Positions 5,235-52,950 of a stretch of 64,000 bases of DNA are shown one piece after another; within the stretch, counting starts at the first letter, position 1, and each line of letters begins with the position of its first letter. The position numbers and the translations under genes were made by a program. Where the stretch lies: the NCBI RefSeq assembly GCF_048403405.1, contig NZ_CP183129.1; one strand, 5' to 3'. This DNA comes from Escherichia coli. Lineage in GTDB: Bacteria > Pseudomonadota > Gammaproteobacteria > Enterobacterales > Enterobacteriaceae. Under the pieces are notes generated by a model. It searched no databases. It was not told the DNA's origin and saw only the letters and a program-made list of their open reading frames with translations.

Positions 5235-5276
5235 ATTCACGTTGTCGCCGTTATGGCGACAACGTGAATTATTTAT
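5235..5276 (+). terminator. intrinsic terminator downstream of lepB
   Basis: 15-bp inverted repeat attcacgttgtcgcc / ggcgacaacgtgaat (5235-5249 / 5255-5269) followed by an AT-rich tract. Confidence 0.5.
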
Positions 5277-5367
5277 GAGATAAATCTCCCGTGGCTAACG
5301 ACATCCCCCGTCGTTGTGTATAGAATATTCCCCCGAAGTTTAAGGTTGGCACCTCCAGGTTGCCACG

Positions 5368-11655: not shown

Positions 11656-13757
<2,102 letters not shown>

Positions 13758-25367: not shown

Positions 25368-26567
25368 TCAAATCTGTCGTAACTGCGCCTCAACATACAA
25401 ATAGCCAATCCCCAGCACCTGTTGTGCGCGGCTTAATTGCCCAAAGCCAATTTTCGTCTCTTTCACGCTCGGTCCTTCGTCGCGGTCGAACGGGTTAAAT
25501 CCCGTCTGGCGAATAATGGTATTAAGCCAGTGCTCACCAAAGGCACAACTGCGACCGTACAACCAAATCTGATTAATATTGAGGATGTTGAGGAAGTTAT
25601 ACAGACTCAAACCAATGGCATTGGCAGAGCGATCAACCCAGCTGGTGATCCACGGTTCTCCACTCTGCCAGGCAGCGATTAACTGCGCTGTTGTCAGTTT
25701 TTCAGGATCAAGCTGAGTATTAACCGGTTGTGATTTTAGCCATACCCGCGCCTGTTTTTTTAATGCGCTTAACGAGGCGACGGTTTCCAGGCAACCATAA
25801 CGTCCGCAGTCGCAGACGACGCCATCCGGATTAACGATGGTGTGACCAATCTGTCCGCTACCATACAAACAGCCGCGATAAATTTGCTCGTTAATCACGA
25901 ACGACGAGCCAATGCCGTAATCAACGTTGATCACGCAGAAATCCCGTTCCTGCGAATTATTTTGCCATTTCTCCGCCAGCGCCAGCATCACGCAGTCATT
26001 ATCGACCATCACCCGAATGCCGAGCTTCTCTTCCAGCAGATACTTTACCTCAACCGGCGTTGTCCACGGCGCTTGCGGCATGGTTTGCGACACGCCGGTC
26101 ACCGGATCAACCTGACCGTGGATTGCCAGCGCCAGGTTGATGGTACGGTCCGGCCACAATTTACGGTGGCGATGCCAGCATTTTTCGATTTCGGACAGCA
26201 GCGCCTGCGGCGTCGGTGCATCAATCTGTAAATACTCAAATTCACCTTTCGGACTTAAACAGGCGTTAGCGACCTGACACTCAATACTGGTGGGCGTCAC
26301 GTTCAGGCACAGCGTCCAGTCACCTTCCGGCGCAATCAGCCATGTACCGCTACTATGCCCGCGCGTCTGGCTTTCATCGTCGATATTCACCACCCGTTTT
26401 TCGCTTTCCAGTTCCTGCAAAATATTACTGACCGCCGGAATCGAAATTTGCGCCAGCCGGGCCAGGGTTGATTTATTGGCGCGCTTTTGCCGGTACAGCA
26501 GTTCCAGAATCACGCATTTGTTATGGTGGCGAATCTGTTGATTATTAATGCAGGCTCTCATCTTCAC
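25368..26567 (-). CDS. yphH: ROK-family (NagC/Mlc-like) transcriptional regulator (399 aa)
   Basis: N-terminal HTH; ROK zinc motif CDCGRYGCLE; divergent from yphG. Confidence 0.85.
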   Translation of the reverse strand: MKMRACINNQQIRHHNKCVILELLYRQKRANKSTLARLAQISIPAVSNILQELESEKRVVNIDDESQTRGHSSGTWLIAPEGDWTLCLNVTPTSIECQVANACLSPKGEFEYLQIDAPTPQALLSEIEKCWHRHRKLWPDRTINLALAIHGQVDPVTGVSQTMPQAPWTTPVEVKYLLEEKLGIRVMVDNDCVMLALAEKWQNNSQERDFCVINVDYGIGSSFVINEQIYRGCLYGSGQIGHTIVNPDGVVCDCGRYGCLETVASLSALKKQARVWLKSQPVNTQLDPEKLTTAQLIAAWQSGEPWITSWVDRSANAIGLSLYNFLNILNINQIWLYGRSCAFGEHWLNTIIRQTGFNPFDRDEGPSVKETKIGFGQLSRAQQVLGIGYLYVEAQLRQI

Positions 26568-26678
26568 TAAACCTTGTTTAGTTAATTGCGTGATTATTCC
26601 GCGAAAACATTGCCAGATTGTTCAATACACTGCCACAAATCTTTTAATTCAGTATGTCTTGTTAATATTGAGGGCACC

Positions 26679-29600
26679 ATGACTCCAGTAAAAGTGTGGC
26701 AAGAGCGCGTTGAGATCCCGACCTATGAAACCGGGCCGCAGGATATACATCCCATGTTCCTGGAAAATCGCGTTTATCAGGGATCGTCCGGCGCGGTTTA
26801 TCCCTACGGCGTGACCGATACGCTGAGCGAGCAGAAAACCCTGAAATCCTGGCAGGCGGTGTGGCTGGAAAACGACTACATCAAAGTGATGATCCTGCCG
26901 GAACTGGGCGGTCGGGTGCATCGCGCGTGGGATAAAGTGAAACAGCGCGATTTTGTCTATCACAATGAAGTCATTAAACCGGCGCTGGTGGGGCTGCTGG
27001 GACCGTGGATCTCCGGCGGGATTGAGTTTAACTGGCCGCAACACCATCGCCCGACCACCTTTATGCCCGTTGATTTCACCCTCGAAGCCCATGAAGACGG
27101 CGCACAGACGGTGTGGGTAGGCGAAACGGAGCCGATGCATGGTTTACAGGTGATGACAGGTTTCACCCTGCGTCCTGACCGGGCGGCGCTGGAAATCGCC
27201 AGCCGCGTCTATAACGGCAACGCCACGCCGCGTCATTTCTTGTGGTGGGCCAACCCGGCAGTGAAAGGGGGTGAAGGGCATCAGAGCGTTTTCCCACCGG
27301 ATGTGACTGCGGTGTTTGATCACGGCAAACGGGCCGTCTCTGCTTTCCCCATCGCCACCGGCACTTACTACAAAGTGGACTACTCCGCTGGAGTGGACAT
27401 TTCTCGCTATAAAAATGTGCCTGTTCCAACCTCATATATGGCTGAAAAATCACAGTACGATTTTGTTGGCGCGTGGTGTCACGATGAAGATGGCGGTTTG
27501 CTGCACGTTGCCAACCACCATATTGCGCCAGGTAAAAAACAGTGGAGTTGGGGACACAGTGAATTTGGCCAGGCGTGGGATAAGAGTCTGACCGACAATA
27601 ACGGCCCGTATATCGAACTGATGACCGGTATTTTTGCCGATAACCAGCCTGATTTTACCTGGCTTGATGCGTACGAAGAGAAGCGTTTCGAGCAGTATTT
27701 CCTGCCTTATCATTCTCTGGGCATGGTGCAAAATGCCTCCCGCGATGCGGTGATAAAACTCCAGCGTAGTGAGCGGGGGATTGAGTGGGGGCTGTATGCC
27801 ATCTCTCCGTTGAAAGGATACCGTCTGGCGATCCGCGAAATCGGCAAATGCAACGCGTTACTCGATGATGCCGTGGCCCTGACACCAGCGACCGCCATCC
27901 AGGGCGTGTTGCACGGTATCAATCCTGACAGACTGACCATTGAACTCTCCGATGCCGACGGCAATATTGTACTGAGTTATCAGGAACATCAGCCGCAAGA
28001 GTTGCCGTTGCCGGACGTCGCCAAAGCGCCACTGGCAGCACAAGACATTACCAGTACAGATGAAGCCTGGTTTATCGGTCAGCATCTGGAGCAATATCAT
28101 CACGCCAGCCGTTCACCGTTCGATTACTACCTGCGCGGCGTGGCGCTGGATCCGCTGGATTATCGCTGTAACCTGGCGCTGGCGATGCTGGAATATAACC
28201 GCGCCGATTTCCCGCAAGCGGTGGCGTATGCCACTCAGGCGCTGAAACGCGCACATGCGCTGAACAAAAATCCGCAGTGCGGACAGGCGAGTTTGATTCG
28301 CGCCAGTGCTTACGAACGTCAGGGACAATATCAACAAGCCGAAGAGGATTTCTGGCGTGCGGTCTGGAGCGGCAACAGTAAAGCCGGAGGCTATTATGGT
28401 CTGGCACGACTGGCGGCGCGTAATGGTAACTTCGACGCGGGTCTGGATTTTTGCCAACAAAGTCTTCGCGCCTGCCCAACCAATCAGGAAGTGCTTTGCC
28501 TGCATAATCTGCTGCTGGTGTTAAGTGGTCGTCAGGACAACGCGCGTTTGCAGCGCGAGAAACTGCTGCGCGATTATCCGCTGAACGCCACTCTGTGGTG
28601 GCTGAACTGGTTCGATGGTCGTAGCGAATCAGCTCTCGCGCAGTGGCGCGGTCTGTGTCAGGGACGCGACGTTAACGCCCTGATGACCGCCGGGCAACTG
28701 ATTAACTGGGGAATGCCCACCCTGGCGGCAGAGATGCTGAACGCACTGGACTGCCAGCGCACGCTGCCGCTTTACCTGCAAGCCAGCTTGCTGCCGAAAG
28801 CCGAACGTGGCGAACTGGTCGCAAAAGCCATTGATGTCTTCCCGCAGTTTGTCCGTTTCCCGAATACGCTGGAAGAAGTGGCGGCGCTGGAGAGTATTGA
28901 AGAGTGCTGGTTTGCCCGTCATTTATTGGCCTGCTTCTACTACAACAAGCGTAGCTACGGCAAAGCCATTGCCTTATGGCAACGTTGCGTAGAGATGTCG
29001 CCGGAGTTTGCCGACGGCTGGCGCGGGTTAGCGATCCATGCGTGGAATAAGCAACACGATTATGAGCTGGCCGCGCGTTATCTTGATAATGCTTATCAGC
29101 TTGCGCCGCAGGATGCACGTCTGCTTTTCGAACGGGATTTGCTGGATAAGTTAAGTGGAGCCACACCGGAGAAACGACTGGCGCGTCTGGAAAATAATCT
29201 GGAAATTGCGCTGAAACGCGACGACATGACCGCAGAACTGCTCAATTTGTGGCATCTCACGGGTCAGGCAGACAAAGCGGCGGACATTCTCGCCACGCGC
29301 AAATTCCACCCGTGGGAAGGCGGGGAAGGGAAGATCACCAGTCAGTTTATCCTCAACCAGTTATTACGCGCCTGGCAGCATCTTGATGCCAGAGAGCCGC
29401 AGCAGGCCAGCGAACTGCTTCATGCCGCGCTGCATTATCCGGAGAATTTAAGCGAAGGCCGTTTACCGGGGCAAACTGATAACGACATCTGGTTCTGGCA
29501 GGCGATATGCGCCAACGCGCAGGGCGATGAAACTGAAGCGACGCGTTGTTTACGTCTGGCGGCGACTGGCGATCGCACCATTAACATTCACAGTTATTAC

Positions 29601-29960
29601 AACGATCAGCCGGTTGATTATCTCTTCTGGCAAGGAATGGCGCTGCGACTGCTGGGTGAACAGCAAACCGCACAGCAACTGTTTAGTGAAATGAAACAGT
29701 GGGCGCAAGAGATGGCGAAAACCAGTATTGAGGCGGATTTCTTTGCTGTTTCACAACCTGACCTGTTATCGCTGTATGGCGATTTACAACAGCAGCATAA
29801 AGAAAAATGCCTGATGGTGGCGATGCTGGCGTCCGCGGGACTCGGGGAGGTTGCGCACTATGAATCTGCTCGCGCTGAATTGACGGCGATTAATCCGGCC
29901 TGGCCGAAAGCGGCATTATTCACCACTGTGATGCCTTTTATTTTTAACCGCGTTCACTAA
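26679..29960 (+). CDS. yphG: large uncharacterised protein with a C-terminal TPR-like repeat region (1093 aa from ATG 26679; 1124 aa if ATG 26586 is used)
   Basis: ORF 26586..29960; the 26679 ATG has GAGGG 6 nt upstream and leaves room for divergent promoters; no signal peptide or transmembrane segment seen. Confidence 0.8.
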   Translation: MTPVKVWQERVEIPTYETGPQDIHPMFLENRVYQGSSGAVYPYGVTDTLSEQKTLKSWQAVWLENDYIKVMILPELGGRVHRAWDKVKQRDFVYHNEVIKPALVGLLGPWISGGIEFNWPQHHRPTTFMPVDFTLEAHEDGAQTVWVGETEPMHGLQVMTGFTLRPDRAALEIASRVYNGNATPRHFLWWANPAVKGGEGHQSVFPPDVTAVFDHGKRAVSAFPIATGTYYKVDYSAGVDISRYKNVPVPTSYMAEKSQYDFVGAWCHDEDGGLLHVANHHIAPGKKQWSWGHSEFGQAWDKSLTDNNGPYIELMTGIFADNQPDFTWLDAYEEKRFEQYFLPYHSLGMVQNASRDAVIKLQRSERGIEWGLYAISPLKGYRLAIREIGKCNALLDDAVALTPATAIQGVLHGINPDRLTIELSDADGNIVLSYQEHQPQELPLPDVAKAPLAAQDITSTDEAWFIGQHLEQYHHASRSPFDYYLRGVALDPLDYRCNLALAMLEYNRADFPQAVAYATQALKRAHALNKNPQCGQASLIRASAYERQGQYQQAEEDFWRAVWSGNSKAGGYYGLARLAARNGNFDAGLDFCQQSLRACPTNQEVLCLHNLLLVLSGRQDNARLQREKLLRDYPLNATLWWLNWFDGRSESALAQWRGLCQGRDVNALMTAGQLINWGMPTLAAEMLNALDCQRTLPLYLQASLLPKAERGELVAKAIDVFPQFVRFPNTLEEVAALESIEECWFARHLLACFYYNKRSYGKAIALWQRCVEMSPEFADGWRGLAIHAWNKQHDYELAARYLDNAYQLAPQDARLLFERDLLDKLSGATPEKRLARLENNLEIALKRDDMTAELLNLWHLTGQADKAADILATRKFHPWEGGEGKITSQFILNQLLRAWQHLDAREPQQASELLHAALHYPENLSEGRLPGQTDNDIWFWQAICANAQGDETEATRCLRLAATGDRTINIHSYYNDQPVDYLFWQGMALRLLGEQQTAQQLFSEMKQWAQEMAKTSIEADFFAVSQPDLLSLYGDLQQQHKEKCLMVAMLASAGLGEVAHYESARAELTAINPAWPKAALFTTVMPFIFNRVH

Positions 29961-30056
29961 ACCCTATTAACTGTAATATTTGAGCGGCACGCGCTGCCGC
30001 TCATCACAAAATAATTAGAATAAGCCGTTGTAAATAAAAACCCTACAGGAGGCACT

Positions 30057-31040
30057 ATGCCTAAAAAAATGAGAACAACCCGTAATCTATTATTAATGGC
30101 TACGCTATTAGGTAGCGCTCTATTTGCCAGGGCAGCGGATAAAGAAATGACCATTGGTGCAATATACCTTGATACCCAGGGATATTACGCTGGCGTGCGT
30201 CAGGGCGTTCAGGATGCGGCAAAAGATTCTTCAGTACAGGTACAGTTAATTGAAACTAACGCCCAGGGCGATATTTCGAAAGAAAGTACTTTTGTAGATA
30301 CCCTCGTGGCGCGTAATGTCGATGCCATTATTTTATCGGCAGTATCTGAAAATGGCAGTAGCCGTACCGTTCGTCGCGCCAGTGAAGCGGGTATTCCGGT
30401 GATTTGCTACAACACCTGTATTAATCAAAAGGGTGTCGATAAATATGTCTCGGCATATCTGGTTGGTGACCCGCTGGAATTTGGTAAAAAACTGGGTAAC
30501 GCTGCCGCCGATTATTTTATTGCCAACAAAATTGACCAGCCGAAAATTGCCGTCATCAATTGCGAAGCCTTTGAAGTTTGTGTGCAACGACGTAAAGGGT
30601 TTGAAGAAGTATTAAAAGCCCGCGTTCCCGGCGCGCAAATTGTCGCTAATCAGGAAGGGACTGTTTTAGATAAAGCGATTTCCGTTGGTGAAAAACTAAT
30701 TATCTCCACGTCGGATCTCAACGCCATTATGGGGGAATCGGGCGGTGCGACACTCGGCGCGGTAAAAGCGGTACGTAATCAAAATCAGGCCGGAAAAATT
30801 GCTGTTTTCGGTTCGGATATGACCACTGAAATTGCTCAGGAGCTGGAAAACAATCAGGTGCTGAAAGCGGTGGTGGATATTTCCGGTAAGAAAATGGGCA
30901 ATGCTGTTTTCGCGCAAACTTTGAAGGTTATCAATAAACAAGCCGACGGTGAAAAAGTGATTCAGGTGCCAATCGATCTCTATACCAAAACGGAAGACGG
31001 TAAACAGTGGCTGGCAACGCACGTTGATGGTCTGCCCTAA
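30057..31040 (+). CDS. yphF: ABC transporter periplasmic sugar-binding protein (327 aa)
   Basis: Signal peptide MPKKMRTTRNLLLMATLLGSALFARA; type I periplasmic binding fold; SD AGGAGG upstream. Confidence 0.85.
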   Translation: MPKKMRTTRNLLLMATLLGSALFARAADKEMTIGAIYLDTQGYYAGVRQGVQDAAKDSSVQVQLIETNAQGDISKESTFVDTLVARNVDAIILSAVSENGSSRTVRRASEAGIPVICYNTCINQKGVDKYVSAYLVGDPLEFGKKLGNAAADYFIANKIDQPKIAVINCEAFEVCVQRRKGFEEVLKARVPGAQIVANQEGTVLDKAISVGEKLIISTSDLNAIMGESGGATLGAVKAVRNQNQAGKIAVFGSDMTTEIAQELENNQVLKAVVDISGKKMGNAVFAQTLKVINKQADGEKVIQVPIDLYTKTEDGKQWLATHVDGLP

Positions 31041-31062
31041 TCGCTGATTCGCAGAGGTCCCT

Positions 31063-32574
31063 ATGTTCACGGCAACAGAGGCAGTCCCGGTAGCAAAAGT
31101 GGTGGCAGGAAATAAGCGTTATCCCGGCGTCGTTGCGTTGGATAACGTTAACTTCACGCTCAATAAAGGCGAAGTTCGTGCGCTGTTAGGCAAAAACGGC
31201 GCGGGCAAATCGACCCTCATTCGAATGCTTACCGGCAGTGAACGTCCGGATAGCGGTGATATCTGGATTGGCGAGACGCGACTGGAAGGTGACGAAGCTA
31301 CGTTGACTCGCCGTGCCGCTGAACTGGGGGTTCGTGCGGTTTATCAGGAGTTAAGTCTGGTGGAGGGACTGACGGTGGCGGAAAACCTCTGCCTCGGTCA
31401 GTGGCCCCGCCGCAACGGCATGATTGATTACCTGCAAATGGCGCAGGATGCCCAACGTTGCTTACAGGCGCTGGGCGTTGACGTTAGCCCTGAACAACTT
31501 GTTTCAACGCTAAGCCCGGCACAAAAGCAACTGGTGGAAATTGCGCGGGTGATGAAGGGCGAGCCGCGCGTGGTCATTCTTGATGAACCTACCAGTTCGC
31601 TTGCCAGTGCGGAAGTTGAACTGGTGATCAGTGCGGTTAAAAAGATGTCGGCACTGGGCGTGGCGGTGATTTATGTCAGCCACCGGATGGAAGAAATCCG
31701 CCGCATTGCCTCCTGTGCCACCGTTATGCGCGATGGTCAGGTGGCGGGCGATGTGATGCTCGAAAACACCTCCACGCATCATATTGTGTCGCTAATGCTC
31801 GGGCGCGATCACGTTGATATTGCGCCGGTTGCCCCTCAGGAAATTGTCGATCAGGCTGTGCTGGTAGTCCGTGCGTTACGCCATAAGCCCAAGCTGGAGG
31901 ATATCAGCTTTACGCTACGTCGTGGCGAAGTACTCGGCATTGCTGGCCTGCTGGGGGCAGGGCGCAGTGAATTGCTGAAGGCGATTGTTGGGCTGGAGAC
32001 GTATGAACAGGGCGAAATTGTTATCAACGGCGAGAAAATCACGCGCCCCGATTACGGCGACATGCTGAAACGCGGCATTGGCTATACGCCAGAAAACCGC
32101 AAAGAAGCGGGGATCATTCCCTGGCTGGGCGTTGACGAAAATACAGTGCTGACCAATCGGCAAAAAATCAGCGCCAACGGTGTGCTGCAATGGTCCACCA
32201 TCCGCCGCCTGACCGAAGAGGTGATGCAGCGGATGACGGTCAAGGCCGCCAGTAGCGAAACGCCCATCGGCACGCTTTCTGGCGGCAATCAGCAAAAAGT
32301 GGTGATCGGTCGTTGGGTCTATGCCGCCAGCCAGATTTTGTTGCTCGACGAGCCAACGCGTGGCGTCGATATCGAAGCCAAACAGCAGATTTACCGTATT
32401 GTCCGCGAGCTGGCTGCCGAAGGAAAAAGTGTGGTGTTTATCTCCAGTGAAGTGGAGGAGTTGCCGCTGGTGTGTGACCGCATCCTGTTATTACAGCACG
32501 GTACGTTCTCGCAGGAGTTTCACTCGCCGGTCAATGTGGATGAGCTGATGTCCGCCATTCTGTCTGTGCACTGA
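31063..32574 (+). CDS. yphE: sugar ABC transporter ATP-binding protein, duplicated ABC domains (503 aa)
   Basis: Walker A GKNGAGKST, a second ABC domain and signature LSGGNQQK. Confidence 0.9.
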   Translation: MFTATEAVPVAKVVAGNKRYPGVVALDNVNFTLNKGEVRALLGKNGAGKSTLIRMLTGSERPDSGDIWIGETRLEGDEATLTRRAAELGVRAVYQELSLVEGLTVAENLCLGQWPRRNGMIDYLQMAQDAQRCLQALGVDVSPEQLVSTLSPAQKQLVEIARVMKGEPRVVILDEPTSSLASAEVELVISAVKKMSALGVAVIYVSHRMEEIRRIASCATVMRDGQVAGDVMLENTSTHHIVSLMLGRDHVDIAPVAPQEIVDQAVLVVRALRHKPKLEDISFTLRRGEVLGIAGLLGAGRSELLKAIVGLETYEQGEIVINGEKITRPDYGDMLKRGIGYTPENRKEAGIIPWLGVDENTVLTNRQKISANGVLQWSTIRRLTEEVMQRMTVKAASSETPIGTLSGGNQQKVVIGRWVYAASQILLLDEPTRGVDIEAKQQIYRIVRELAAEGKSVVFISSEVEELPLVCDRILLLQHGTFSQEFHSPVNVDELMSAILSVH

Positions 32575-32598
32575 TGAATTTTACCGAGGAACCTGAAG

Positions 32599-33597
32599 AT
32601 GTCTGCTTCGTCATTACCATTGCCGCAGGGCAAGAGCGTCTCGCTCAAACAATTTGTCAGTCGCCATATTAATGAGATCGGTTTGCTGGTGGTGATCGCC
32701 ATTCTTTATCTGGTCTTCTCTCTGAACGCGCCGGGTTTTATCTCATTGAATAACCAGATGAACGTGCTGCGCGATGCCGCCACCATTGGGATTGCCGCCT
32801 GGGCGATGACGCTGATTATTATCTCCGGAGAAATTGATGTCAGCGTTGGGCCGATGGTGGCTTTTGTCTCGGTGTGCCTGGCATTTTTGCTGCAATTTGA
32901 AGTTCCGCTGGCGATAGCTTGTCTGCTGGTGTTGCTGTTAGGCGCGCTGATGGGAACGCTGGCCGGGGTGCTGCGCGGCGTGTTTAACGTGCCAAGTTTT
33001 GTTGCCACGCTGGGTTTATGGAGCGCCCTGCGCGGAATGGGGCTGTTTATGACGAACGCCTTGCCAGTGCCGATTGACGAAAACGAAGTGCTGGACTGGC
33101 TGGGGGGACAATTTCTCGGTGTGCCGGTATCCGCGCTGATCATGATGGTGTTGTTTGCGCTGTTTGTGTTCATCAGCCGCAAAACCGCCTTCGGGCGCTC
33201 GGTTTTTGCTGTTGGCGGTAATGCCACTGCAGCACAGTTGTGCGGTATTAACGTTCGTCGGGTACGCATTCTTATTTTTACCCTTTCGGGATTATTAGCG
33301 GCGGTGACCGGCATTTTGTTGGCGGCGCGCCTCGGTTCCGGTAACGCAGGTGCCGCAAACGGTCTGGAGTTTGACGTCATCGCCGCGGTCGTGGTTGGCG
33401 GTACGGCGCTTTCCGGTGGTCGCGGCTCGTTGTTCGGTACGCTGCTTGGCGTACTGGTGATTACGCTAATCGGTAACGGTCTGGTGCTGCTCGGGATTAA
33501 CTCCTTTTTCCAGCAGGTGGTGCGCGGCGTCATCATCGTGGTGGCGGTGCTGGCGAATATCTTGCTGACTCAGCGAAGCAGTAAAGCGAAACGCTAA
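32599..33597 (+). CDS. yphD: sugar ABC transporter permease (332 aa)
   Basis: Polytopic hydrophobic protein of the RbsC/AraH-like permease type immediately after yphE. Confidence 0.85.
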   Translation: MSASSLPLPQGKSVSLKQFVSRHINEIGLLVVIAILYLVFSLNAPGFISLNNQMNVLRDAATIGIAAWAMTLIIISGEIDVSVGPMVAFVSVCLAFLLQFEVPLAIACLLVLLLGALMGTLAGVLRGVFNVPSFVATLGLWSALRGMGLFMTNALPVPIDENEVLDWLGGQFLGVPVSALIMMVLFALFVFISRKTAFGRSVFAVGGNATAAQLCGINVRRVRILIFTLSGLLAAVTGILLAARLGSGNAGAANGLEFDVIAAVVVGGTALSGGRGSLFGTLLGVLVITLIGNGLVLLGINSFFQQVVRGVIIVVAVLANILLTQRSSKAKR

Positions 33598-33662
33598 ACC
33601 TTAACGCCCCTGGCGCGGGTGCGGCAGGGATGAAAATTAATCGTATTGTTAATGAGGGATTT

Positions 33663-34724
33663 ATGAAAACGATGCTGGCAGCTTATTTACCAGGAAATTC
33701 GACCGTCGATCTGCGGGAAGTTGCGGTGCCGACGCCGGGGATTAACCAGGTACTGATCAAAATGAAATCCTCCGGGATTTGCGGAAGTGATGTCCACTAT
33801 ATCTATCATCAACACCGTGCCACGGCAGCGGCACCCGATAAACCGTTATACCAGGGATTTATCAACGGTCATGAACCGTGCGGGCAAATTGTGGAGATGG
33901 GGCAAGGCTGCCGCCATTTTAAAGAGGGCGACCGCGTGCTGGTGTATCACATTTCTGGCTGTGGTTTTTGCCCGAACTGCCGCCGCGGCTTTCCTATCTC
34001 TTGTACTGGCAAAGGAAAAGCGGCTTACGGCTGGCAGCGTGACGGCGGCCATGCTGAATACCTGCTGGCGGAAGAAAAAGATCTGATCCTGCTCCCGGAC
34101 GCGCTGAGCTATGAAGATGGTGCGTTTATCAGTTGCGGCGTTGGTACAGCGTATGAAGGGATTTTGCGCGGCGAAGTTTCCGGCAGTGATAACGTGCTGG
34201 TGGTCGGTCTGGGGCCGGTCGGCATGATGGCGATGATGCTGGCGAAAGGTCGCGGTGCAAAACGGATCATCGGCGTTGATATGCTGCCGGAACGTCTGGC
34301 GATGGCGAAACAGTTAGGGGTGATGGATCACGGCTATTTAGCAACCACCGAAGGTCTGCCGCAGATTATCGCCGAACTCACCCACGGTGGCGCGGATGTT
34401 GCGCTCGATTGTTCCGGTAATGCCGCAGGTCGCTTACTGGCGTTGCAATCCACTGCTGACTGGGGACGGGTGGTTTACATCGGAGAAACCGGAAAAGTGG
34501 AGTTCGAGGTTAGCGCCGATCTGATGCATCATCAACGGCGGATTATTGGCTCCTGGGTAACCAGTTTGTTCCATATGGAAAAATGTGCCCACGATTTGAC
34601 TGACTGGAAACTGTGGCCGCGTAATGCCATTACCCATCGCTTCACGCTGGAACAGGCAGGAGATGCCTATGCGCTGATGGCGAGCGGTAAATGCGGGAAA
34701 GTTGTGATTAACTTCCCGGATTAA
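33663..34724 (+). CDS. yphC: Zn-dependent alcohol/polyol dehydrogenase family protein (353 aa)
   Basis: GHEPCG zinc-ligand motif and Rossmann GLGPVG; start chosen at MKTMLAAYLPG. Confidence 0.85.
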   Translation: MKTMLAAYLPGNSTVDLREVAVPTPGINQVLIKMKSSGICGSDVHYIYHQHRATAAAPDKPLYQGFINGHEPCGQIVEMGQGCRHFKEGDRVLVYHISGCGFCPNCRRGFPISCTGKGKAAYGWQRDGGHAEYLLAEEKDLILLPDALSYEDGAFISCGVGTAYEGILRGEVSGSDNVLVVGLGPVGMMAMMLAKGRGAKRIIGVDMLPERLAMAKQLGVMDHGYLATTEGLPQIIAELTHGGADVALDCSGNAAGRLLALQSTADWGRVVYIGETGKVEFEVSADLMHHQRRIIGSWVTSLFHMEKCAHDLTDWKLWPRNAITHRFTLEQAGDAYALMASGKCGKVVINFPD

Positions 34725-34735
34725 GGAGTCAGCGG

Positions 34736-35608
34736 ATGACCATCTATACGTTATCTCACGGGCCGCTAGAGCTGGACGTTTCTGACCGGGGCGGCGTCAT
34801 CGAAGGCTTCTGGCGTGACGCGACGCCGCTCTTACGTCCCGGTAAAAAAAGCGGTGTGGCAACCGATGCCTCTTGTTTTCCGCTGGTGCCGTTTGCAAAC
34901 CGGGTGAGCGGCAATCGTTTTGTCTGGCAGGGGCGTGAGTATCAACTGCAACCGAATGTTGAGTGGGATGCGCACTATCTGCACGGCGACGGCTGGCTGG
35001 GGCAGTGGCAATGTGTCTCGCGCAGCGAAGATAGCTTGTGTCTGGTGTATGAACATCGCAGCGGTGTTTATCACTATCGGGTAAGTCAGGCGTTTCATTT
35101 AACGGCAGATACGCTGACGGTGACGCTCTCTGTCACCAATCAAGGGGCAGAGACGCTGCCATTTGGTACCGGCTGGCATCCTTATTTTCCGTTGTCACCA
35201 CAAACGCGGATTCAGGCGCAGGCGAGCGGTTACTGGCTGGAGCGGGAGCAGTGGCTGGCGGGTGAGTTTTGCGAGCAGCTACCGCAGGAACTGGATTTCA
35301 ACCAGCTCGCGCCGTTGCCGCGCCAGTGGGTGAACAATGGTTTTGCCGGATGGAATGGTCAGGCTCGCATCGAGCAGCCGCAGGAGGGTTATGCCATCAT
35401 CATGGAAACGACGCCACCTGCACCATGTTATTTCATCTTTGTTTCCGACCCGGCGTTTGATAAAGGATATGCGTTTGATTTCTTCTGTCTGGAACCGATG
35501 AGCCATGCGCCGGATGACCATCATCGCCCGGAAGGTGGTGATCTCATTGCGCTTGCACCAGGGGAATCAACAACTTCAGAGATGTCGTTGCGGGTTGCGT
35601 TACTGTAA
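34736..35608 (+). CDS. yphB: aldose 1-epimerase (mutarotase)-like protein (290 aa)
   Basis: ORF 34736..35608 with conserved His/Glu pattern of the aldose-epimerase superfamily. Confidence 0.8.
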   Translation: MTIYTLSHGPLELDVSDRGGVIEGFWRDATPLLRPGKKSGVATDASCFPLVPFANRVSGNRFVWQGREYQLQPNVEWDAHYLHGDGWLGQWQCVSRSEDSLCLVYEHRSGVYHYRVSQAFHLTADTLTVTLSVTNQGAETLPFGTGWHPYFPLSPQTRIQAQASGYWLEREQWLAGEFCEQLPQELDFNQLAPLPRQWVNNGFAGWNGQARIEQPQEGYAIIMETTPPAPCYFIFVSDPAFDKGYAFDFFCLEPMSHAPDDHHRPEGGDLIALAPGESTTSEMSLRVALL

Positions 35609-35617
35609 TTTATAAAA

Positions 35618-35649
35618 TGCCGGATAAGGCGTTCACGCCGCATCCGGCA
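35618..35649. repeat. REP element between convergent yphB and yphA
   Basis: tgccggataaggcgttcacgccgcatccggca, a canonical REP palindrome. Confidence 0.6.
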
Positions 35650-35655
35650 TCTTTC

Positions 35656-36078
35656 CTAACGCCGATCGAGAGAAATCGCCCCCGGCCCGGTAATTGCCAA
35701 CAGCAGGAATGCGCCAGCGATACTGACATTCTTCCAGAAATTAATCATATTTGGCCCAACCGCATCGCCGGTCATATCCCAGTAATGGTGACCAATCACC
35801 GCCGTACCCAGCGTGTAGAAAATAAACAGCACCGCCAGCGGACGGGTGAAAAAGCCAAGCACGATTAATATCGCGGCGGGCACTTCCATAACTACCGCAA
35901 TAATCGCTGCCAGCATCGGCATTGGCGCGCCCAGCGAGGCCATATATTGGACCGTACCGTCAAAACCCATCATTTTGGGAAAACCAAAAATAATGAAAAT
36001 TAAGACCACGGCGATACGGGCAATTAATAACAAAACGGGGCGTGCAGCACCAAAATCAAAATAACGTAGTGAGTTCAT
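35656..36078 (-). CDS. yphA: DoxX-family inner membrane protein (140 aa)
   Basis: ORF 35656..36150; start at [10 protein letters not shown]; four hydrophobic helices. Confidence 0.8.
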
Positions 36079-36174
36079 AACCAATCCCTTTGCAAGATAA
36101 TGTGATTTAAACGTAATACACACTCTTGCACCTCGCCACGCCCCAGGCATTGAGATATTCGCTAATTATCCTGG

Positions 36175-37386
<1,212 letters not shown>

Positions 37387-38199
37387 TTAAAGATCCAGCC
37401 CAGCCGCTACGTGGCGAATGCCGCGAATCGCTAAACCCGCATCAGCGTTGATCATCACACCGCTTAATGCGCGATTATTGCGCCGCGATGCCAACATCAC
37501 ATACGGACCCGTAAAATCCGCCGGTTGCGGGAAAAATTGCAGCGGTAAAATGGCGGCAATTTTCTCCGGCGTCAGAGACTGCATTATCGAGGTTTCACTT
37601 TGCCCGAGCGCCTGTGGGCCGCGCAGGTCGCTGGCCATACCACACGGGCCGACGCCATTCACCCGCACTTTCGGTGCCAGTTCATAAGCCAGTTGGCGAA
37701 TAAGTCCGGTTGCGGCATGTTTACTGGCGGTGTACAGCGGGCCACCGCCGCCGGGATACCAGGCGGCATTTGACAGTGTGAAAATCATGCTGCCTTCACT
37801 GGCGATTAACGCCGGAGCGCAGGCTTTTGCGCCCAGCAGGTAACCGAGTACGTTGACGTTAAACAGCTCGTGGAAGCCAGTTTCGAGCGTCTCTGCGGGA
37901 GTATTAACCAGTGAGGCATTGTGATCCCAGATGCCCGCATTGCCGATAAAACAATCCAGCTTGCCAGAACGAGTCAGGATCTGATCGACCGCGCGTTGAT
38001 AATCGGCATAGCAGGTCACGTTACCTTCCACCGCCAGAATATGTTCGCCAAATCGCTGACGCAGACTGGCGACTTTTGCCGCCGACAGTTCCAGCGTGGC
38101 AACCTGCGCGCCTTCTTCGATAAATCGCTCGACCAGCGCCAGGCCTAATCCCGATCCGCCGCCGGTAATAAAGATGGACTCGTTATGCAGATCGCTCAT
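37387..38199 (-). CDS. hcaB: cis-dihydrodiol dehydrogenase, SDR family (270 aa)
   Basis: Cofactor motif TGGGSGLG; SDR fold. Confidence 0.9.
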
Positions 38200-38515
38200 G
38201 GCTGCGCCTCCGGTAAGTCGATGAAGATGTCACCACCTTCAACGTGTACTGGATAAGTGGTTAGCGGATCGGTGGCGGGCAGGCATAACGCTTTCCCCGT
38301 TTTCAGGCAAAAACTGGCGGCGTGCAGCGGGCACTCCACCGTGGCGTCATCTTCCAGATACCCTTCTGACATCGACGCATTACCATGGCTGCAACGATCG
38401 TTAATGGCATAAAACTCGCCGCCTACGTTGAACAGGGCGATGACGGGCGAGGTATCGATCCGGAGAGCCTCACCCTCCGGCACATCCGCAACGGGACACG
38501 CATAAATTCGATTCA

Positions 38516-38516
<1 letters not shown>
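38196..38516 (-). CDS. hcaC: Rieske [2Fe-2S] ferredoxin subunit (106 aa)
   Basis: Rieske motifs CSHGNA and CPLHAASF. Confidence 0.9.
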
Positions 38517-40428
<1,912 letters not shown>

Positions 40429-40527
40429 CTATTTTTGTGCCATAAGGATGTTGCTGGTTGGTTGCTAATATGTGAAATAGTTAATTTCTACCAGCTGAGA
40501 CGTTTTTTCGATAACAAGGGGAAGGTG

Positions 40528-41418
40528 ATGGAACTACGGCATTTACGCTATTTCGTCGCAGTGGCGCAGGCACTGAACTTTACCCGTGCGGCGGAAAAAC
40601 TGCATACCTCACAGCCTTCGTTAAGCAGCCAGATCCGCGATCTTGAAAACTGTGTCGGTGTTCCGTTGCTGGTGAGGGATAAGCGCAAAGTCGCGTTGAC
40701 GGCGGCGGGAGAATGTTTTCTCCAGGACGCGCTGGCAATCCTCGAACAAGCGGAAAATGCCAAATTACGGGCGCGGAAAATTGTTCAGGAAGACAGACAA
40801 TTAACCATTGGCTTTGTGCCATCGGCGGAAGTGAATTTACTGCCAAAAGTATTACCGATGTTTCGTCTCAGACAGCCAGACACCTTAATTGAGCTGGTGA
40901 GTTTAATCACCACGGAACAGGAAGAAAAAATTCGCCGTGGTGAACTCGACGTCGGCTTAATGCGCCATCCTGTTTATAGCCCGGAGATTGATTATCTGGA
41001 GCTTTTTGACGAACCATTAGTGGTGGTGTTACCGGTTGATCACCCTTTAGCACATGAAAAAGAGATCACCGCCGCGCAACTGGATGGCGTGAATTTCGTC
41101 AGTACTGATCCTGCGTATTCCGGTTCGCTTGCGCCGATCGTTAAAGCGTGGTTTGCGCAAGAAAACAGCCAGCCAAATATCGTCCAGGTAGCAACGAATA
41201 TTCTGGTGACCATGAATCTGGTGGGGATGGGGCTGGGCGTCACTTTGATACCCGGTTATATGAATAATTTTAATACCGGCCAGGTGGTATTTCGACCCAT
41301 TGCCGGAAATGTGCCTTCCATTGCTTTACTGATGGCGTGGAAGAAAGGGGAGATGAAGCCGGCATTACGCGATTTCATCGCCATTGTGCAGGAACGTTTG
41401 GCAAGCGTAACGGCATAA
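40528..41418 (+). CDS. hcaR: LysR-family transcriptional activator of the hca operon (296 aa)
   Basis: ORF 40435..41418; start at MELRHLRYFVAVAQ (LysR HTH); divergent from hcaE. Confidence 0.9.
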   Translation: MELRHLRYFVAVAQALNFTRAAEKLHTSQPSLSSQIRDLENCVGVPLLVRDKRKVALTAAGECFLQDALAILEQAENAKLRARKIVQEDRQLTIGFVPSAEVNLLPKVLPMFRLRQPDTLIELVSLITTEQEEKIRRGELDVGLMRHPVYSPEIDYLELFDEPLVVVLPVDHPLAHEKEITAAQLDGVNFVSTDPAYSGSLAPIVKAWFAQENSQPNIVQVATNILVTMNLVGMGLGVTLIPGYMNNFNTGQVVFRPIAGNVPSIALLMAWKKGEMKPALRDFIAIVQERLASVTA

Positions 41419-41577
41419 TTACGCATTATTTTTGCAACATGCGTCGCGGATCGCAGTTTTTTAGTGCTTGTGAACTGGTGTTACAGACATCGGGAAGCAG
41501 GCTCGAATATTCTTATTTTTCAACTTGCACCAACATTCGATTAACCCCAGACTAACGCCTCCTGATGGGAGGGACTC

Positions 41578-42717
41578 ATGGTTTTGCAATCCACGCGCTG
41601 GTTGGCGCTCGGCTATTTCACATACTTTTTTAGTTACGGCATTTTTCTACCTTTCTGGAGCGTCTGGCTTAAAGGGATTGGTTTAACGCCAGAAACCATC
41701 GGCCTGTTATTGGGGGCAGGTCTGGTTGCCCGTTTTCTCGGGAGTTTGCTCATCGCGCCCCGCGTCAGCGATCCTTCTCGCCTGATTTCCGCCTTGCGCG
41801 TGCTGGCACTGCTGACACTTCTCTTTGCTGTCGCCTTCTGGGCGGGGGCGCACGTAGCGTGGCTGATGCTGGTGATGATTGGCTTTAACCTCTTTTTCTC
41901 ACCGCTGGTACCGTTGACCGATGCACTGGCGAATACGTGGCAAAAGCAGTTCCCGCTTGATTACGGCAAAGTGCGACTGTGGGGCTCGGTGGCGTTTGTC
42001 ATTGGCTCGGCGCTGACGGGCAAACTGGTCACTATGTTTGATTATCGGGTGATCCTCGCGCTGTTGACGTTGGGCGTGGCATCCATGCTGCTCGGCTTTC
42101 TCATCCGTCCGACGATTCAGCCACAAGGGGCAAGCCGCCAGCAGGAGAGCACCGGTTGGTCAGCGTGGTTGGCGCTGGTTCGCCAGAACTGGCGCTTTCT
42201 GGCCTGCGTTTGTTTATTGCAGGGGGCGCATGCGGCCTATTACGGTTTTAGCGCCATTTACTGGCAGGCCGCTGGCTACTCGGCCTCGGCGGTGGGCTAT
42301 TTGTGGTCGCTGGGCGTGGTGGCGGAAGTCATTATCTTTGCGCTGAGTAATAAACTTTTCCGCCGTTGTAGTGCACGCGATATGCTGTTGATCTCAGCGA
42401 TTTGCGGCGTAGTGCGCTGGGGCATTATGGGAGCAACTACGGCGTTGCCGTGGTTGATAGTGGTGCAAATTCTGCATTGTGGCACCTTCACGGTCTGCCA
42501 CCTGGCCGCCATGCGCTATATTGCCGCTCGCCAGGGTAGCGAAGTCATCCGTTTACAGGCGGTTTACTCTGCCGTCGCGATGGGCGGCAGTATCGCGATC
42601 ATGACCGTTTTCGCCGGTTTCCTGTATCAATATCTGGGCCACGGCGTGTTCTGGGTGATGGCGCTGGTGGCGCTTCCGGCAATGTTTTTGCGCCCGAAAG
42701 TTGTTCCCTCATGCTGA
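41578..42717 (+). CDS. hcaT: MFS transporter, putative 3-phenylpropionate permease (379 aa)
   Basis: 12-helix hydrophobic profile. Confidence 0.85.
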   Translation: MVLQSTRWLALGYFTYFFSYGIFLPFWSVWLKGIGLTPETIGLLLGAGLVARFLGSLLIAPRVSDPSRLISALRVLALLTLLFAVAFWAGAHVAWLMLVMIGFNLFFSPLVPLTDALANTWQKQFPLDYGKVRLWGSVAFVIGSALTGKLVTMFDYRVILALLTLGVASMLLGFLIRPTIQPQGASRQQESTGWSAWLALVRQNWRFLACVCLLQGAHAAYYGFSAIYWQAAGYSASAVGYLWSLGVVAEVIIFALSNKLFRRCSARDMLLISAICGVVRWGIMGATTALPWLIVVQILHCGTFTVCHLAAMRYIAARQGSEVIRLQAVYSAVAMGGSIAIMTVFAGFLYQYLGHGVFWVMALVALPAMFLRPKVVPSC

Positions 42718-43989
42718 TTCGAGCATTTTGCGGATCTGCTCCTGTTGATGTGTTGTCAACGTCAGGTCCGTATAGATCAGCGGTGGTGAAAAGAGCGGTA
42801 ACGGCATAGTATAAGGAGCAATAATCAGTGCCGCGCTGCGCGGAGCGCCTGTCTGCAAAAATGCCTTTACCGACATATGTTTAATATTGAGCGGCAGTAA
42901 CGTTAGTTCGCGTAGCTGCTGCTCAATCTGCGCTTCTCGCTCGCTATCATTCCCGGTCAGTAGAATAATCTGTTTCTCATGCAGGTCGTTTTCCTGCATT
43001 AGCCAGGCACCGAAAATCACCGCGACCAGACCGCTTTCCTCATCAGAAAGATGGACGCCGTATTCACTTTCAAATCCGGCCAGCGCCGCGCGGGTGGTGC
43101 GCACCAGGCGTGGATACAGGCGGGCGAACTCTTCCGGCAGGGTGTTATCAATACCGATGGCAAACAAACTGCGATTTAACGCCTGGGCGAGGTGGGTATA
43201 AAGCTGATCGCATAACCCCTGTTCATCATAAAAACGAACATTTCCCAGCTCACGAAAATGGTTTACCAGACGTTTGATAGACTTACGCAGTTGTCTGTCC
43301 CGCTGATGCGCATCCCGCAGTGGATCGGGAACCCGCAACATGGAAAAAAGTAATGCCATAAACAGTGGCTCATCAGGCGGTACAGGCTGGAGCGCCCGAC
43401 GCTGCCAGTGGCGTCCAATTTCCTGCGCTACCTGAAATTCAAGGCAGGATTCCGCCCAGCGACGTTGGAGCGGATTAAACTGAGGCGTAATTCCAGCGTG
43501 GTGTTGCAGCAAACAATATTGCAGATACAGACACAGGAAATGAATATCGCGCGTTTCAAAGCGTTTTTGCAGCCGTCGGGAGCAGAGATTCACTAACGCT
43601 TGTAGATTGGTATCGTCGTAAAAGTTACGCGCAATTCCGCGCCGCTTCAGTTCACTCTTCAGGGCGGGGGTGAAATGGCTGGTAATAAATGACGGACATA
43701 GACGGAAACCACGTCGTAGCCAGTGAAATAAACACAAACGTTGGTTAAGCACTGTACCTTCAACCCGGTAGCTACCGTCATAACCAGTAGTCAGTGTGAG
43801 TTGATGATAGCGCAGGATCTCACGTCCTGTTTCGCTGATATCAAGACTGGCAATATCATCATCCACACCATTAAGCTCGCTGAAAGTTGCCGTGGTGGCG
43901 GTCAACCCCGGCTGAAAGAGTGTCAGCAAGATCTGGCAGCGGCGCTGGGGAGCCGAAAGGACAGATGGTGGAGCAAGCGTAGGCATCAT
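42709..43989 (-). CDS. csiE: stationary-phase inducible protein CsiE (426 aa)
   Basis: ORF 42709..44010; start at MMPTLAPPSVLSAPQRR; 3' end overlaps hcaT by 9 nt. Confidence 0.8.
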   Translation of the reverse strand: MMPTLAPPSVLSAPQRRCQILLTLFQPGLTATTATFSELNGVDDDIASLDISETGREILRYHQLTLTTGYDGSYRVEGTVLNQRLCLFHWLRRGFRLCPSFITSHFTPALKSELKRRGIARNFYDDTNLQALVNLCSRRLQKRFETRDIHFLCLYLQYCLLQHHAGITPQFNPLQRRWAESCLEFQVAQEIGRHWQRRALQPVPPDEPLFMALLFSMLRVPDPLRDAHQRDRQLRKSIKRLVNHFRELGNVRFYDEQGLCDQLYTHLAQALNRSLFAIGIDNTLPEEFARLYPRLVRTTRAALAGFESEYGVHLSDEESGLVAVIFGAWLMQENDLHEKQIILLTGNDSEREAQIEQQLRELTLLPLNIKHMSVKAFLQTGAPRSAALIIAPYTMPLPLFSPPLIYTDLTLTTHQQEQIRKMLESA

Positions 43990-44179
43990 CTGTAGATCTC
44001 CCATAAGCATAATTGATAAGAATAGCTAAAGTTTGCTCATGGAAATGGCGAAGGGAATGCTAATCATCAGAAATGTTGGCAAGCGTCACAGAATTTTTCT
44101 CATCTTAAACTGTTCTGACCAGTGGATTAGCATGTCTTAAGGTGGTTTTGTGAATGATTATCGTGCTAGCGATCATGGG

Positions 44180-45034
44180 TTAGTTCTGCGGATTCAACGC
44201 GCTAAGGATAAAATCCACCATCTGTTCGCGATAAACATCGCCGTGACGATCGGAAAAAGCATCAATGTGTTCGCCATCCGGGATTAGGATCAACCGTTTT
44301 GGCTCTTTTGCCAGGCTATACAACTTTTCGCTGTGCTGCCATGGGATAACGTGATCAGCTTTACCGTGAATCAGTAAAAGCGGGATCGGGCTGACGCTGG
44401 CGATGTAATTTTCGCCGCTGTAACTCTCATCAAGTAAGTAGCCACTGCCGGGGATCATCTGGTTGGCGATGGTCGCATAAGAGGCAAATGTGGAGTCGAG
44501 GATCACCGCACGTATGCCTTCACGATCACCCTGACCAATAACATCCAGAATATTCGCCCCGCCAATACTCTGCCCGAACAGCACCAGCCGTTGTGGGTTT
44601 ACATCACTGCGATGGCGCACCACATTGATGGCACTTTGCGTATCGTCCAGCAATCCGGCCTGGGACGGCGTGCCTTTTGATTTACCAAACCCGCGATAAT
44701 CAAACATAAAAACGTTGAAATTACGCTCGGGTAACCAACTGACCAGCGGCCAGTGGGCGGACATATTTCCGGCATTGCCGTGAGCATGAATAATGGTGGC
44801 AATGGCATTTTCAGCGGGGCCAGTTGCAGAAGGGATAAACCAACCATGTAGGCGAGTGCCATCTTTAGCGGTGAATTCTACTGATTCGGCTGACCAGGGA
44901 TCGGGGCCGTAGATTTTGTCGTCAGGGTAATAGAAAAAATTGATGGCGATGCGCGGTATTAAATAAATGCAGAAGGCAACAACAAAGAGAATAAACAGAA
45001 TTTTGAGAACGCGTTTGTTCACTGGCAGCGCCAT
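44180..45034 (-). CDS. yfhR: alpha/beta-hydrolase family protein (284 aa)
   Basis: N-terminal membrane anchor; nucleophile elbow GQSIGG; start at MALPVNKRV. Confidence 0.8.
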   Translation of the reverse strand: MALPVNKRVLKILFILFVVAFCIYLIPRIAINFFYYPDDKIYGPDPWSAESVEFTAKDGTRLHGWFIPSATGPAENAIATIIHAHGNAGNMSAHWPLVSWLPERNFNVFMFDYRGFGKSKGTPSQAGLLDDTQSAINVVRHRSDVNPQRLVLFGQSIGGANILDVIGQGDREGIRAVILDSTFASYATIANQMIPGSGYLLDESYSGENYIASVSPIPLLLIHGKADHVIPWQHSEKLYSLAKEPKRLILIPDGEHIDAFSDRHGDVYREQMVDFILSALNPQN

Positions 45035-52706: not shown

Positions 52707-52950
52707 TTTCCCCGTCATGCTTCACGCCGCAGATGCGTTGGCTGCGCTCGTTCACCCCAGTCACATAGTTATCTATGCTCCTGGGGCTTCACTCACTTGC
52801 CGCGTGATTCGGCCTTTTGGCCTCACCCCTCCGGGGCCAGCGCAAGCGCTGTTCAAAACGCAATGCGTTTTGTCCTGCAACGCGAATCATTTAGCGGAAA
52901 AATCCTGGGGCTGCCAACTGGCGGCCCTTTTACAAAGAAGGATAACTAAA

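Follow-up and report, generated by a model that had tools for sequence, protein, structure and literature searches.

How do two genes that meet tail to tail, with no spacer between them, bring their transcripts to an end, and does such a meeting point serve a function? The hcaT/csiE junction of Escherichia coli raises this question, and it was analysed in a window of 64,000 nucleotides. The original prediction held that the coding regions of hcaT (plus strand) and csiE (minus strand) share 9 nt at their 3′ ends, that no space for terminators is left between them, and that each transcript must run into the antisense of the other gene, with possible interference between a catabolic transporter and a stationary-phase gene. 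Mapping of 3′ ends by Term-seq was suggested as a check, with ends inside the coding regions taken as a sign of misannotated stops.

The overlap proved exact. The sequence, a six-frame list of open reading frames (ORFs) and the RefSeq annotation all placed the 9 nt common to the two 3′ ends, on opposite strands, at 42709–42717 (Table 1). The shared stretch is codon-aligned on both strands. On the plus strand TCATGCTGA reads TCA TGC TGA (S, C, stop) and closes HcaT with ...RPKVVPSC; on the minus strand it reads TCA GCA TGA (S, A, stop) and closes CsiE with ...RKMLESA. Since the window differs from positions 1411400–1475399 of NZ_CP103479.1 at only 2 of 64,000 bases, the RefSeq annotation of that genome, from which the gene boundaries in Table 1 were taken, transfers to it one-to-one. 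The same 9-nt overlap is annotated in K-12 MG1655 (RefSeq; csiE 2665435..2666715 on the plus strand, hcaT 2666707..2667846 on the minus strand). HcaT matched the Pfam family MFS_1_like (PF12832, E = 3.7e-54) and CsiE the PRD family (PF00874), and the csiE start at 43989 was matched by an orthologue alignment beginning MMPTL. With RefSeq annotation, Pfam domains and orthologues of constant length for both genes, the 9 shared nucleotides constitute a convergent coding-sequence overlap.

Table 1. Features of the hcaT/csiE junction, and a second convergent overlap, in window coordinates
Feature	Position	Strand	Basis or remark
hcaT coding sequence (CDS), 379 aa, MFS transporter	41578..42717	+	Stop TGA 42715-42717; ORF list, RefSeq, Pfam, orthologues
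csiE CDS, 426 aa, PRD-domain stationary-phase protein	42709..43989	-	Stop TGA 42711 down to 42709; ORF list, RefSeq, Pfam
9-nt hcaT/csiE shared stretch, TCATGCTGA	42709..42717	both	Last two sense codons and stop of each gene
csiE 3′ UTR to the Term-seq end	42662..42708	-	Antisense to the last ~18 hcaT codons; Adams et al. 2021
csiE read-through RNA, candidate Rho loading/termination zone	42250..42661	-	C-rich, G-poor, U-poor; antisense to hcaT
hcaT read-through RNA, candidate Rho zone, first C>G stretch	42897..43097	+	+180 to +380 past the hcaT stop; antisense to csiE
tadA/mltF overlap, 4 nt (TTAA)	12201-12204	tadA +, mltF -	tadA ends at 12204, mltF at 12201; RefSeq

Of 5426 complete E. coli genomes, all but two (5424) have the csiE-hcaT locus, and a 61-nt stretch with the junction at its centre was identical in 5054 of these 5424 (93%). 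The surrounding 2.8 kb, at 95–99% identity in most genomes, was less uniform. The overlap as such is already known: it stands in the reference annotation, the pair has been catalogued for transcript overlap, and the csiE 3′ end has been mapped. Among the new parts of the present analysis is the comparison of the junction across 80 species genomes.

That comparison bears on whether both stops are real. CsiE orthologues in Enterobacteriaceae were 424–427 aa long, and every one ended at most two residues from a conserved ...LE. HcaT orthologues, present in 79 of 80 loci at 75–98% identity, measured approximately 375–385 aa across about 80 species, and all ended 3–10 residues past a conserved (L/V)RP(K/R/G)V. 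In all likelihood both coding regions end where annotated, and both stops are credible. The shared 9 nt encode unconstrained tail residues only (SA after ...LE in CsiE, VPSC after ...RPKV in HcaT), which makes double coding at this junction cheap.

For the comparison itself, a CsiE profile search of one genome per species gave 80 loci (L003–L082) from about 30 genera, with E. coli as L001 and L002. The neighbouring gene and both stops were located by script and hcaT by tblastn. The two genes were convergent in 79 of the 80 species genomes, 78 of them by tblastn; in the remaining one (L059) the locus ends at a contig edge, and hcaT antisense sequence is visible with a gap of 0. In a Buttiauxella metagenome-assembled genome (L076), hcaT was absent. 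The stop-to-stop distance was +3 nt or less in 77 of the 79 convergent loci, mostly −9, −6, −4 or 0. The −9 form of the window occurred in Escherichia, the Citrobacter amalonaticus group, Pseudenterobacter and Intestinirhabdus, and −6 in the Citrobacter freundii group, Salmonella arizonae/diarizonae and some Lelliottia and Enterobacter. The commonest form was −4 (TTAA, TTAG, CTAA or CTAG). A distance of 0 was seen in many Enterobacter and in a cryptic-clade Escherichia (L004), whose CsiE is two residues shorter owing to an additional TAA codon, and distances of +2 and +3 in one locus each (L041 and L027, respectively). Longer overlaps, of −14, −17, −22 and −77 (L078, L037, L047 and L064), accompanied the loss of one stop: in the first three hcaT extends 14–22 nt into csiE antisense, and in the last, Kosakonia cowanii, csiE extends 77 nt into hcaT antisense.

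Only two junctions had a real spacer, filled in both cases by REP-like GC-rich palindromes: 89 nt (5237–5325) in Dryocola (L053; distance +89), with a fold of −57 kcal/mol, and 38 nt (5237–5274) in Cedecea sulfonylureivorans (L058; +38). A spacer is thus tolerated where a REP-like element lands, and neither gene was lost in these two lineages. Judging from the genomes compared, the spacer-less abutment is ancestral to the family and predates the genus Escherichia. The overlap length drifts between lineages (−9, −6, −4, 0, +2, +3), as point changes and indels of 3 nt shift the position of the stop codons.

The absence of space for terminators was borne out as well. A consensus scan for terminator-like hairpins with a U-tract came up empty past both stops: it gave no site on the plus strand from 42718 to 44600, nor on the minus strand beyond the csiE stop. 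When the csiE 3′ region was folded over 79 nt (z = 0.26) and 141 nt (z = 0.57), and the hcaT 3′ region over 211 nt (z = 0.03), stability did not exceed that of dinucleotide shuffles. On the empty scan and these three folds, an intrinsic terminator near either stop was dropped as a candidate, and the GC-rich hairpin with a U-tract on both strands that marks a bidirectional intrinsic terminator was not found at the junction. RNAalifold on 77 orthologous junctions returned −0.18 kcal/mol, essentially no consensus structure, on which a conserved RNA structure in the csiE 3′ UTR was dropped too. Synonymous-codon entropy was 1.49 in hcaT codons 361–379 against a gene mean of 1.18 (76 orthologues), and 1.23 in csiE codons 391–424 against a gene mean of 1.185 (74 orthologues). 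With no dip at the 3′ ends, a hidden nucleotide-level element beneath the overlap was likewise discarded. An Rfam scan of the whole window at the gathering threshold gave no match within 41000–44200.

Some further observations were made in the course of these scans. Across the junction, at 42711–42726 of the E. coli sequence, lies an inverted repeat of 5 bp (ATGCT/AGCAT) that could form a small hairpin in either transcript; its stability was not above that of shuffles. Synonymous diversity was low in hcaT codons 1–30 (41578–41667), at 0.67 against the gene mean of 1.18 (76 orthologues), with a weaker 5′ dip in csiE (0.91); the low value in hcaT may result from a translation-initiation or 5′ regulatory constraint. 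Elsewhere in the window, Rfam matched elements expected in E. coli (AsrC, rncO, ohsC, GlmY, iscRS, ryfA and IS128), together with a marginal match to AaHKsRNA22 between iscX and pepB (52808–52880, minus strand; 45.3 bits against a gathering score of 39.8).

How far the transcripts run past the stops can be judged for csiE. In 1995 Marschall and Hengge-Aronis reportedly found that stationary phase induces this gene through sigma-S and cAMP-CRP. The suggested Term-seq mapping is already partly published: Supplementary file 1 of Adams et al. 2021 (eLife, PMC7815308) lists a 3′ end at MG1655 2666762 on the plus strand, with 1664 average reads, classed as ‘primary’ for csiE and ‘antisense’ for hcaT. 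Only the LB OD600 2.0 sheet has this end, which the LB 0.4 and M63 sheets lack, a restriction that fits the reported induction. Transferred by alignment of K-12 with the window, which shows no difference in 42658–42758, this end corresponds to 42662 on the minus strand. It lies 47 nt past the csiE stop and within antisense hcaT, so that the csiE mRNA and the hcaT coding sequence are complementary over at least 56 nt (42662–42717). Neither a U-tract nor a convincing hairpin precedes it. For hcaT, no 3′ end is listed in Adams et al. 2021 (PMC7815308), and the bicyclomycin data of that study (Supplementary file 2; OD 0.5, with csiE off) hold no csiE or hcaT entry.

Transcript overlap was also reported with ExcludonFinder (Sanmartin et al., NAR 2025, PMC12288877): csiE-hcaT is one of the 165 convergent excludons that were seen in at least 50% of 58 MG1655 transcriptomes. 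Overlapping transcription units, as found in convergent excludons, were thus seen for csiE-hcaT in the coding-sequence overlap, the Term-seq end and Table 1 of the ExcludonFinder study; such overlap is unavoidable because the coding sequences themselves overlap. The expectation that each transcript enters the antisense of the other gene was therefore upheld, for csiE by the Term-seq end at +47 and for the pair by its ExcludonFinder listing. The published csiE end gives no sign of misannotated stops, as it lies downstream of the csiE stop.

We consider the junction to be probably an incidental, compact tail-to-tail arrangement with factor-dependent termination. Two real, weakly expressed genes are joined without a spacer, in what looks like ordinary genome compaction and not a regulatory device. 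The junction would stay compact because both genes can do without an intrinsic terminator and the extreme C-terminal residues are free to vary. Termination of both genes is most likely Rho-dependent, as far as base composition can indicate: the ribosome would be released at each stop, and the untranslated read-through RNA would then be terminated by Rho. The mapped csiE end at 42662 would accordingly represent a trimmed or processed product, and the complementarity of at least 56 nt would be a by-product. Given two weak or conditional promoters, the mRNAs probably interfere with each other little, if at all.

A composition scan of the read-through RNAs is in keeping with Rho-dependent termination, more directly for csiE. 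Its candidate zone had a C/G ratio of 1.0–2.0 in most 80-nt windows and a U fraction of 0.09–0.19; from the csiE stop on, C/G was 1.3–1.4 in the first 120 nt and reached up to 2.0 further on. Being antisense to a G/T-rich gene for a membrane protein, this RNA is C-rich, G-poor and U-poor from the outset. Past hcaT, C/G was 0.5–0.95 over the first ~150 nt and 1.1–1.9 thereafter. Untranslated C-rich, G-poor RNA is thus available from the csiE stop on, but past hcaT only from about +180 nt, and the composition is permissive and not diagnostic. In Dar and Sorek 2018 (PMC6061677), Rho-dependent ends are described as processed back to a stable position. The csiE end resembles these in having no U-tract and in lying just past the stop in untranslated RNA that is followed by C-rich, G-poor sequence; it differs in that no stable stem-loop lies upstream.

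The surroundings of the junction agree with an incidental origin. The window runs in the order rpoE-rseABC ... rnc ... glmY ... glyA-yph-hca-hcaT-csiE-yfhR-suhB-isc ... pbpC, and holds seven annotated convergent pairs of coding sequences with stop-to-stop distances of +194, −4, +44, +63, +47, −9 and +31. Two of the seven overlap, hcaT/csiE and tadA/mltF. The presence of a second convergent overlap in the same 64 kb makes the arrangement commonplace, and the hcaT/csiE overlap is statistically not unusual. Like other convergent overlaps that share stop-codon complements, tadA/mltF is arranged tail to tail with no intergenic terminator, and mltF-tadA likewise appears in the ExcludonFinder list (PMC12288877). 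It shares 4 nt, whereas hcaT/csiE shares 9 codon-aligned nucleotides and hence two sense codons per strand as well; in other Enterobacteriaceae the csiE/hcaT junction itself takes the 4-nt (TTAA/TTAG/CTAA/CTAG) or a 6-nt form. Observations that count against an incidental junction are its uniformity in E. coli above the flanking 2.8 kb, the ExcludonFinder listing, which leaves room for a regulatory role, and the near-universal zero-length spacer across the family, which could also reflect selection for the overlap.

Such selection is the core of a second explanation, which we regard as unlikely though conceivable. The terminator-less junction would be a functional excludon, in which csiE transcription driven by sigma-S and cAMP-CRP represses the MFS transporter gene in cis. 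RNA polymerases would collide head-on, RNase III would cut the mRNA duplex (at least 56 bp), or both; the reverse direction would also be possible. Membership in the MG1655 ‘excludome’, in at least 50% of 58 RNA-seq samples (PMC12288877), favours this explanation, but a coverage-based listing is almost automatic once both genes are expressed, because the coding sequences overlap. The csiE 3′ end does map within antisense hcaT, and zero-spacer convergence was kept in 77 of 79 Enterobacteriaceae genomes while the outer genes (yfhR and the hca/yph cluster) come and go. However, the overlap length is not conserved, REP-like spacers occur in two lineages with both genes retained, and the junction shows no conserved structure and no synonymous-site constraint. 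A literature search found no reciprocal-expression, dsRNA or RNase III data on this pair; one microarray table names both genes but gives no usable direction.

Like the excludons collected with ExcludonFinder (PMC12288877), csiE and hcaT are convergent, have little space between them (in this case a negative distance) and belong to overlapping transcription units. In that collection 146 of 165 pairs have a predicted intrinsic terminator inside the neighbour's unit, whereas csiE-hcaT has none on either strand. The defining outcome of an excludon, mutually exclusive expression with RNase III processing, is for csiE-hcaT a possibility. A bolder version appears very unlikely: the junction would be a selected, family-wide cis-antisense switch older than Escherichia, by which stationary-phase csiE silences a core MFS transporter, again through colliding polymerases or a duplex cut by RNase III. 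The transporter would be misnamed ‘hcaT’, since its hca link is limited to E. coli and few genomes besides. If this were true, the csiE-hcaT pair would be a functional module.

It is highly improbable that a cryptic intrinsic or collision-assisted terminator of csiE lies inside the 3′ coding region of hcaT. The candidate is a weak palindrome at 42663–42680, GCCGGAAGCGCCACCAGC on the csiE strand. The Term-seq end at 42662 falls one base beyond it, and on the plus strand the palindrome followed by TTTTTG was recognized as a terminator-like site, the only match of the scan near the junction, located before the hcaT stop. Acting on that strand, though, it would implausibly end hcaT 37 nt ahead of the stop codon of that gene. 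Read on the csiE strand, the stem consists of 5 pairs with a C-A mismatch, and the sequence after it, GCCAUCACCCA, contains no U-tract; the stem is missing from the minimum free energy structure of the 79-nt fold, and the 141-nt fold has only a 4-bp GCGC stem nearby. Neither fold beats shuffles, and the palindrome is not conserved across the 77 junctions.

Bidirectional intrinsic terminators solve the same problem, the ending of two converging units in very short space. By SEnd-seq, Ju and colleagues reportedly found them in 2019 between convergent genes, as GC-rich hairpins with A-tract and U-tract flanks. A collision model has been put forward for them (bioRxiv 10.1101/2022.10.23.513370); no hairpin flanked by an A-tract and a U-tract occurs at or near 42709–42717.

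The chance of an annotation artefact, with one stop not used in vivo owing to an earlier end or a frameshift and hence no true coding overlap, is close to negligible: although the last residues of HcaT and CsiE are unconserved and their translation cannot be proved from sequence alone, both frames run uninterrupted to precisely these stops in Escherichia (L002, L003, L005 and L006), 5054 of 5424 E. coli genomes share the same junction, and misannotated stops were ruled out by the constant lengths of both proteins across about 80 species and by the position of the mapped csiE 3′ end downstream of its stop.

The description of hcaT as a catabolic transporter was not supported. Of 82 loci, just 4 have hcaR beside hcaT, namely the two of E. 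coli (L001 and L002), one further Escherichia (L006) and one Citrobacter (L019); it was not next to hcaT in E. albertii, E. whittamii, the cryptic-clade Escherichia locus or any of the other genera. Because the two genes are neighbours in so few genomes, the 3-phenylpropionate role of HcaT is a label given by adjacency. Conserved linkage of hcaT with hcaR and hcaEFCBD, by which it would belong to the hca (3-phenylpropionate) cluster, was not found.

In the window, yph and hca genes (yphH to hcaR, 25368–41418) stand between glyA and hcaT. In the two loci checked, Salmonella arizonae (L021) and Enterobacter asburiae (L043), glyA lies directly beyond hcaT, and the ancestral order is therefore csiE-hcaT beside glyA. 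In E. coli the yph/hca block thus looks like an insertion that separated hcaT from glyA. At 41405–41424 on the plus strand, 150 nt before hcaT begins, the hcaR stop is overlapped by a terminator-like hairpin, after which comes ATTATTTTTG; this suggests that hcaT is transcribed alone and not with hcaR. On the other side, yfhR (44180–45034, between csiE and suhB) was found beside csiE only in Escherichia loci and, as two distant homologues, at 55–62% identity; in other genera this side of csiE carries two ORFs of about 212 and 328 aa.

The shared 3′ end has a practical consequence, in that deletions or insertions at either end hit both hcaT and csiE. Because the genes overlap, one published Keio csiE deletion primer, which was mis-targeted, also removes the 3′ end of hcaT and truncates its last transmembrane helix (PMC9431181). 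Knock-out phenotypes of csiE or hcaT are therefore to be read with the shared 3′ end in mind. For biology at large the hcaT/csiE overlap carries little weight; the comparative result is of modest value for annotation, as it presents the csiE-hcaT pair as the ancestral unit.
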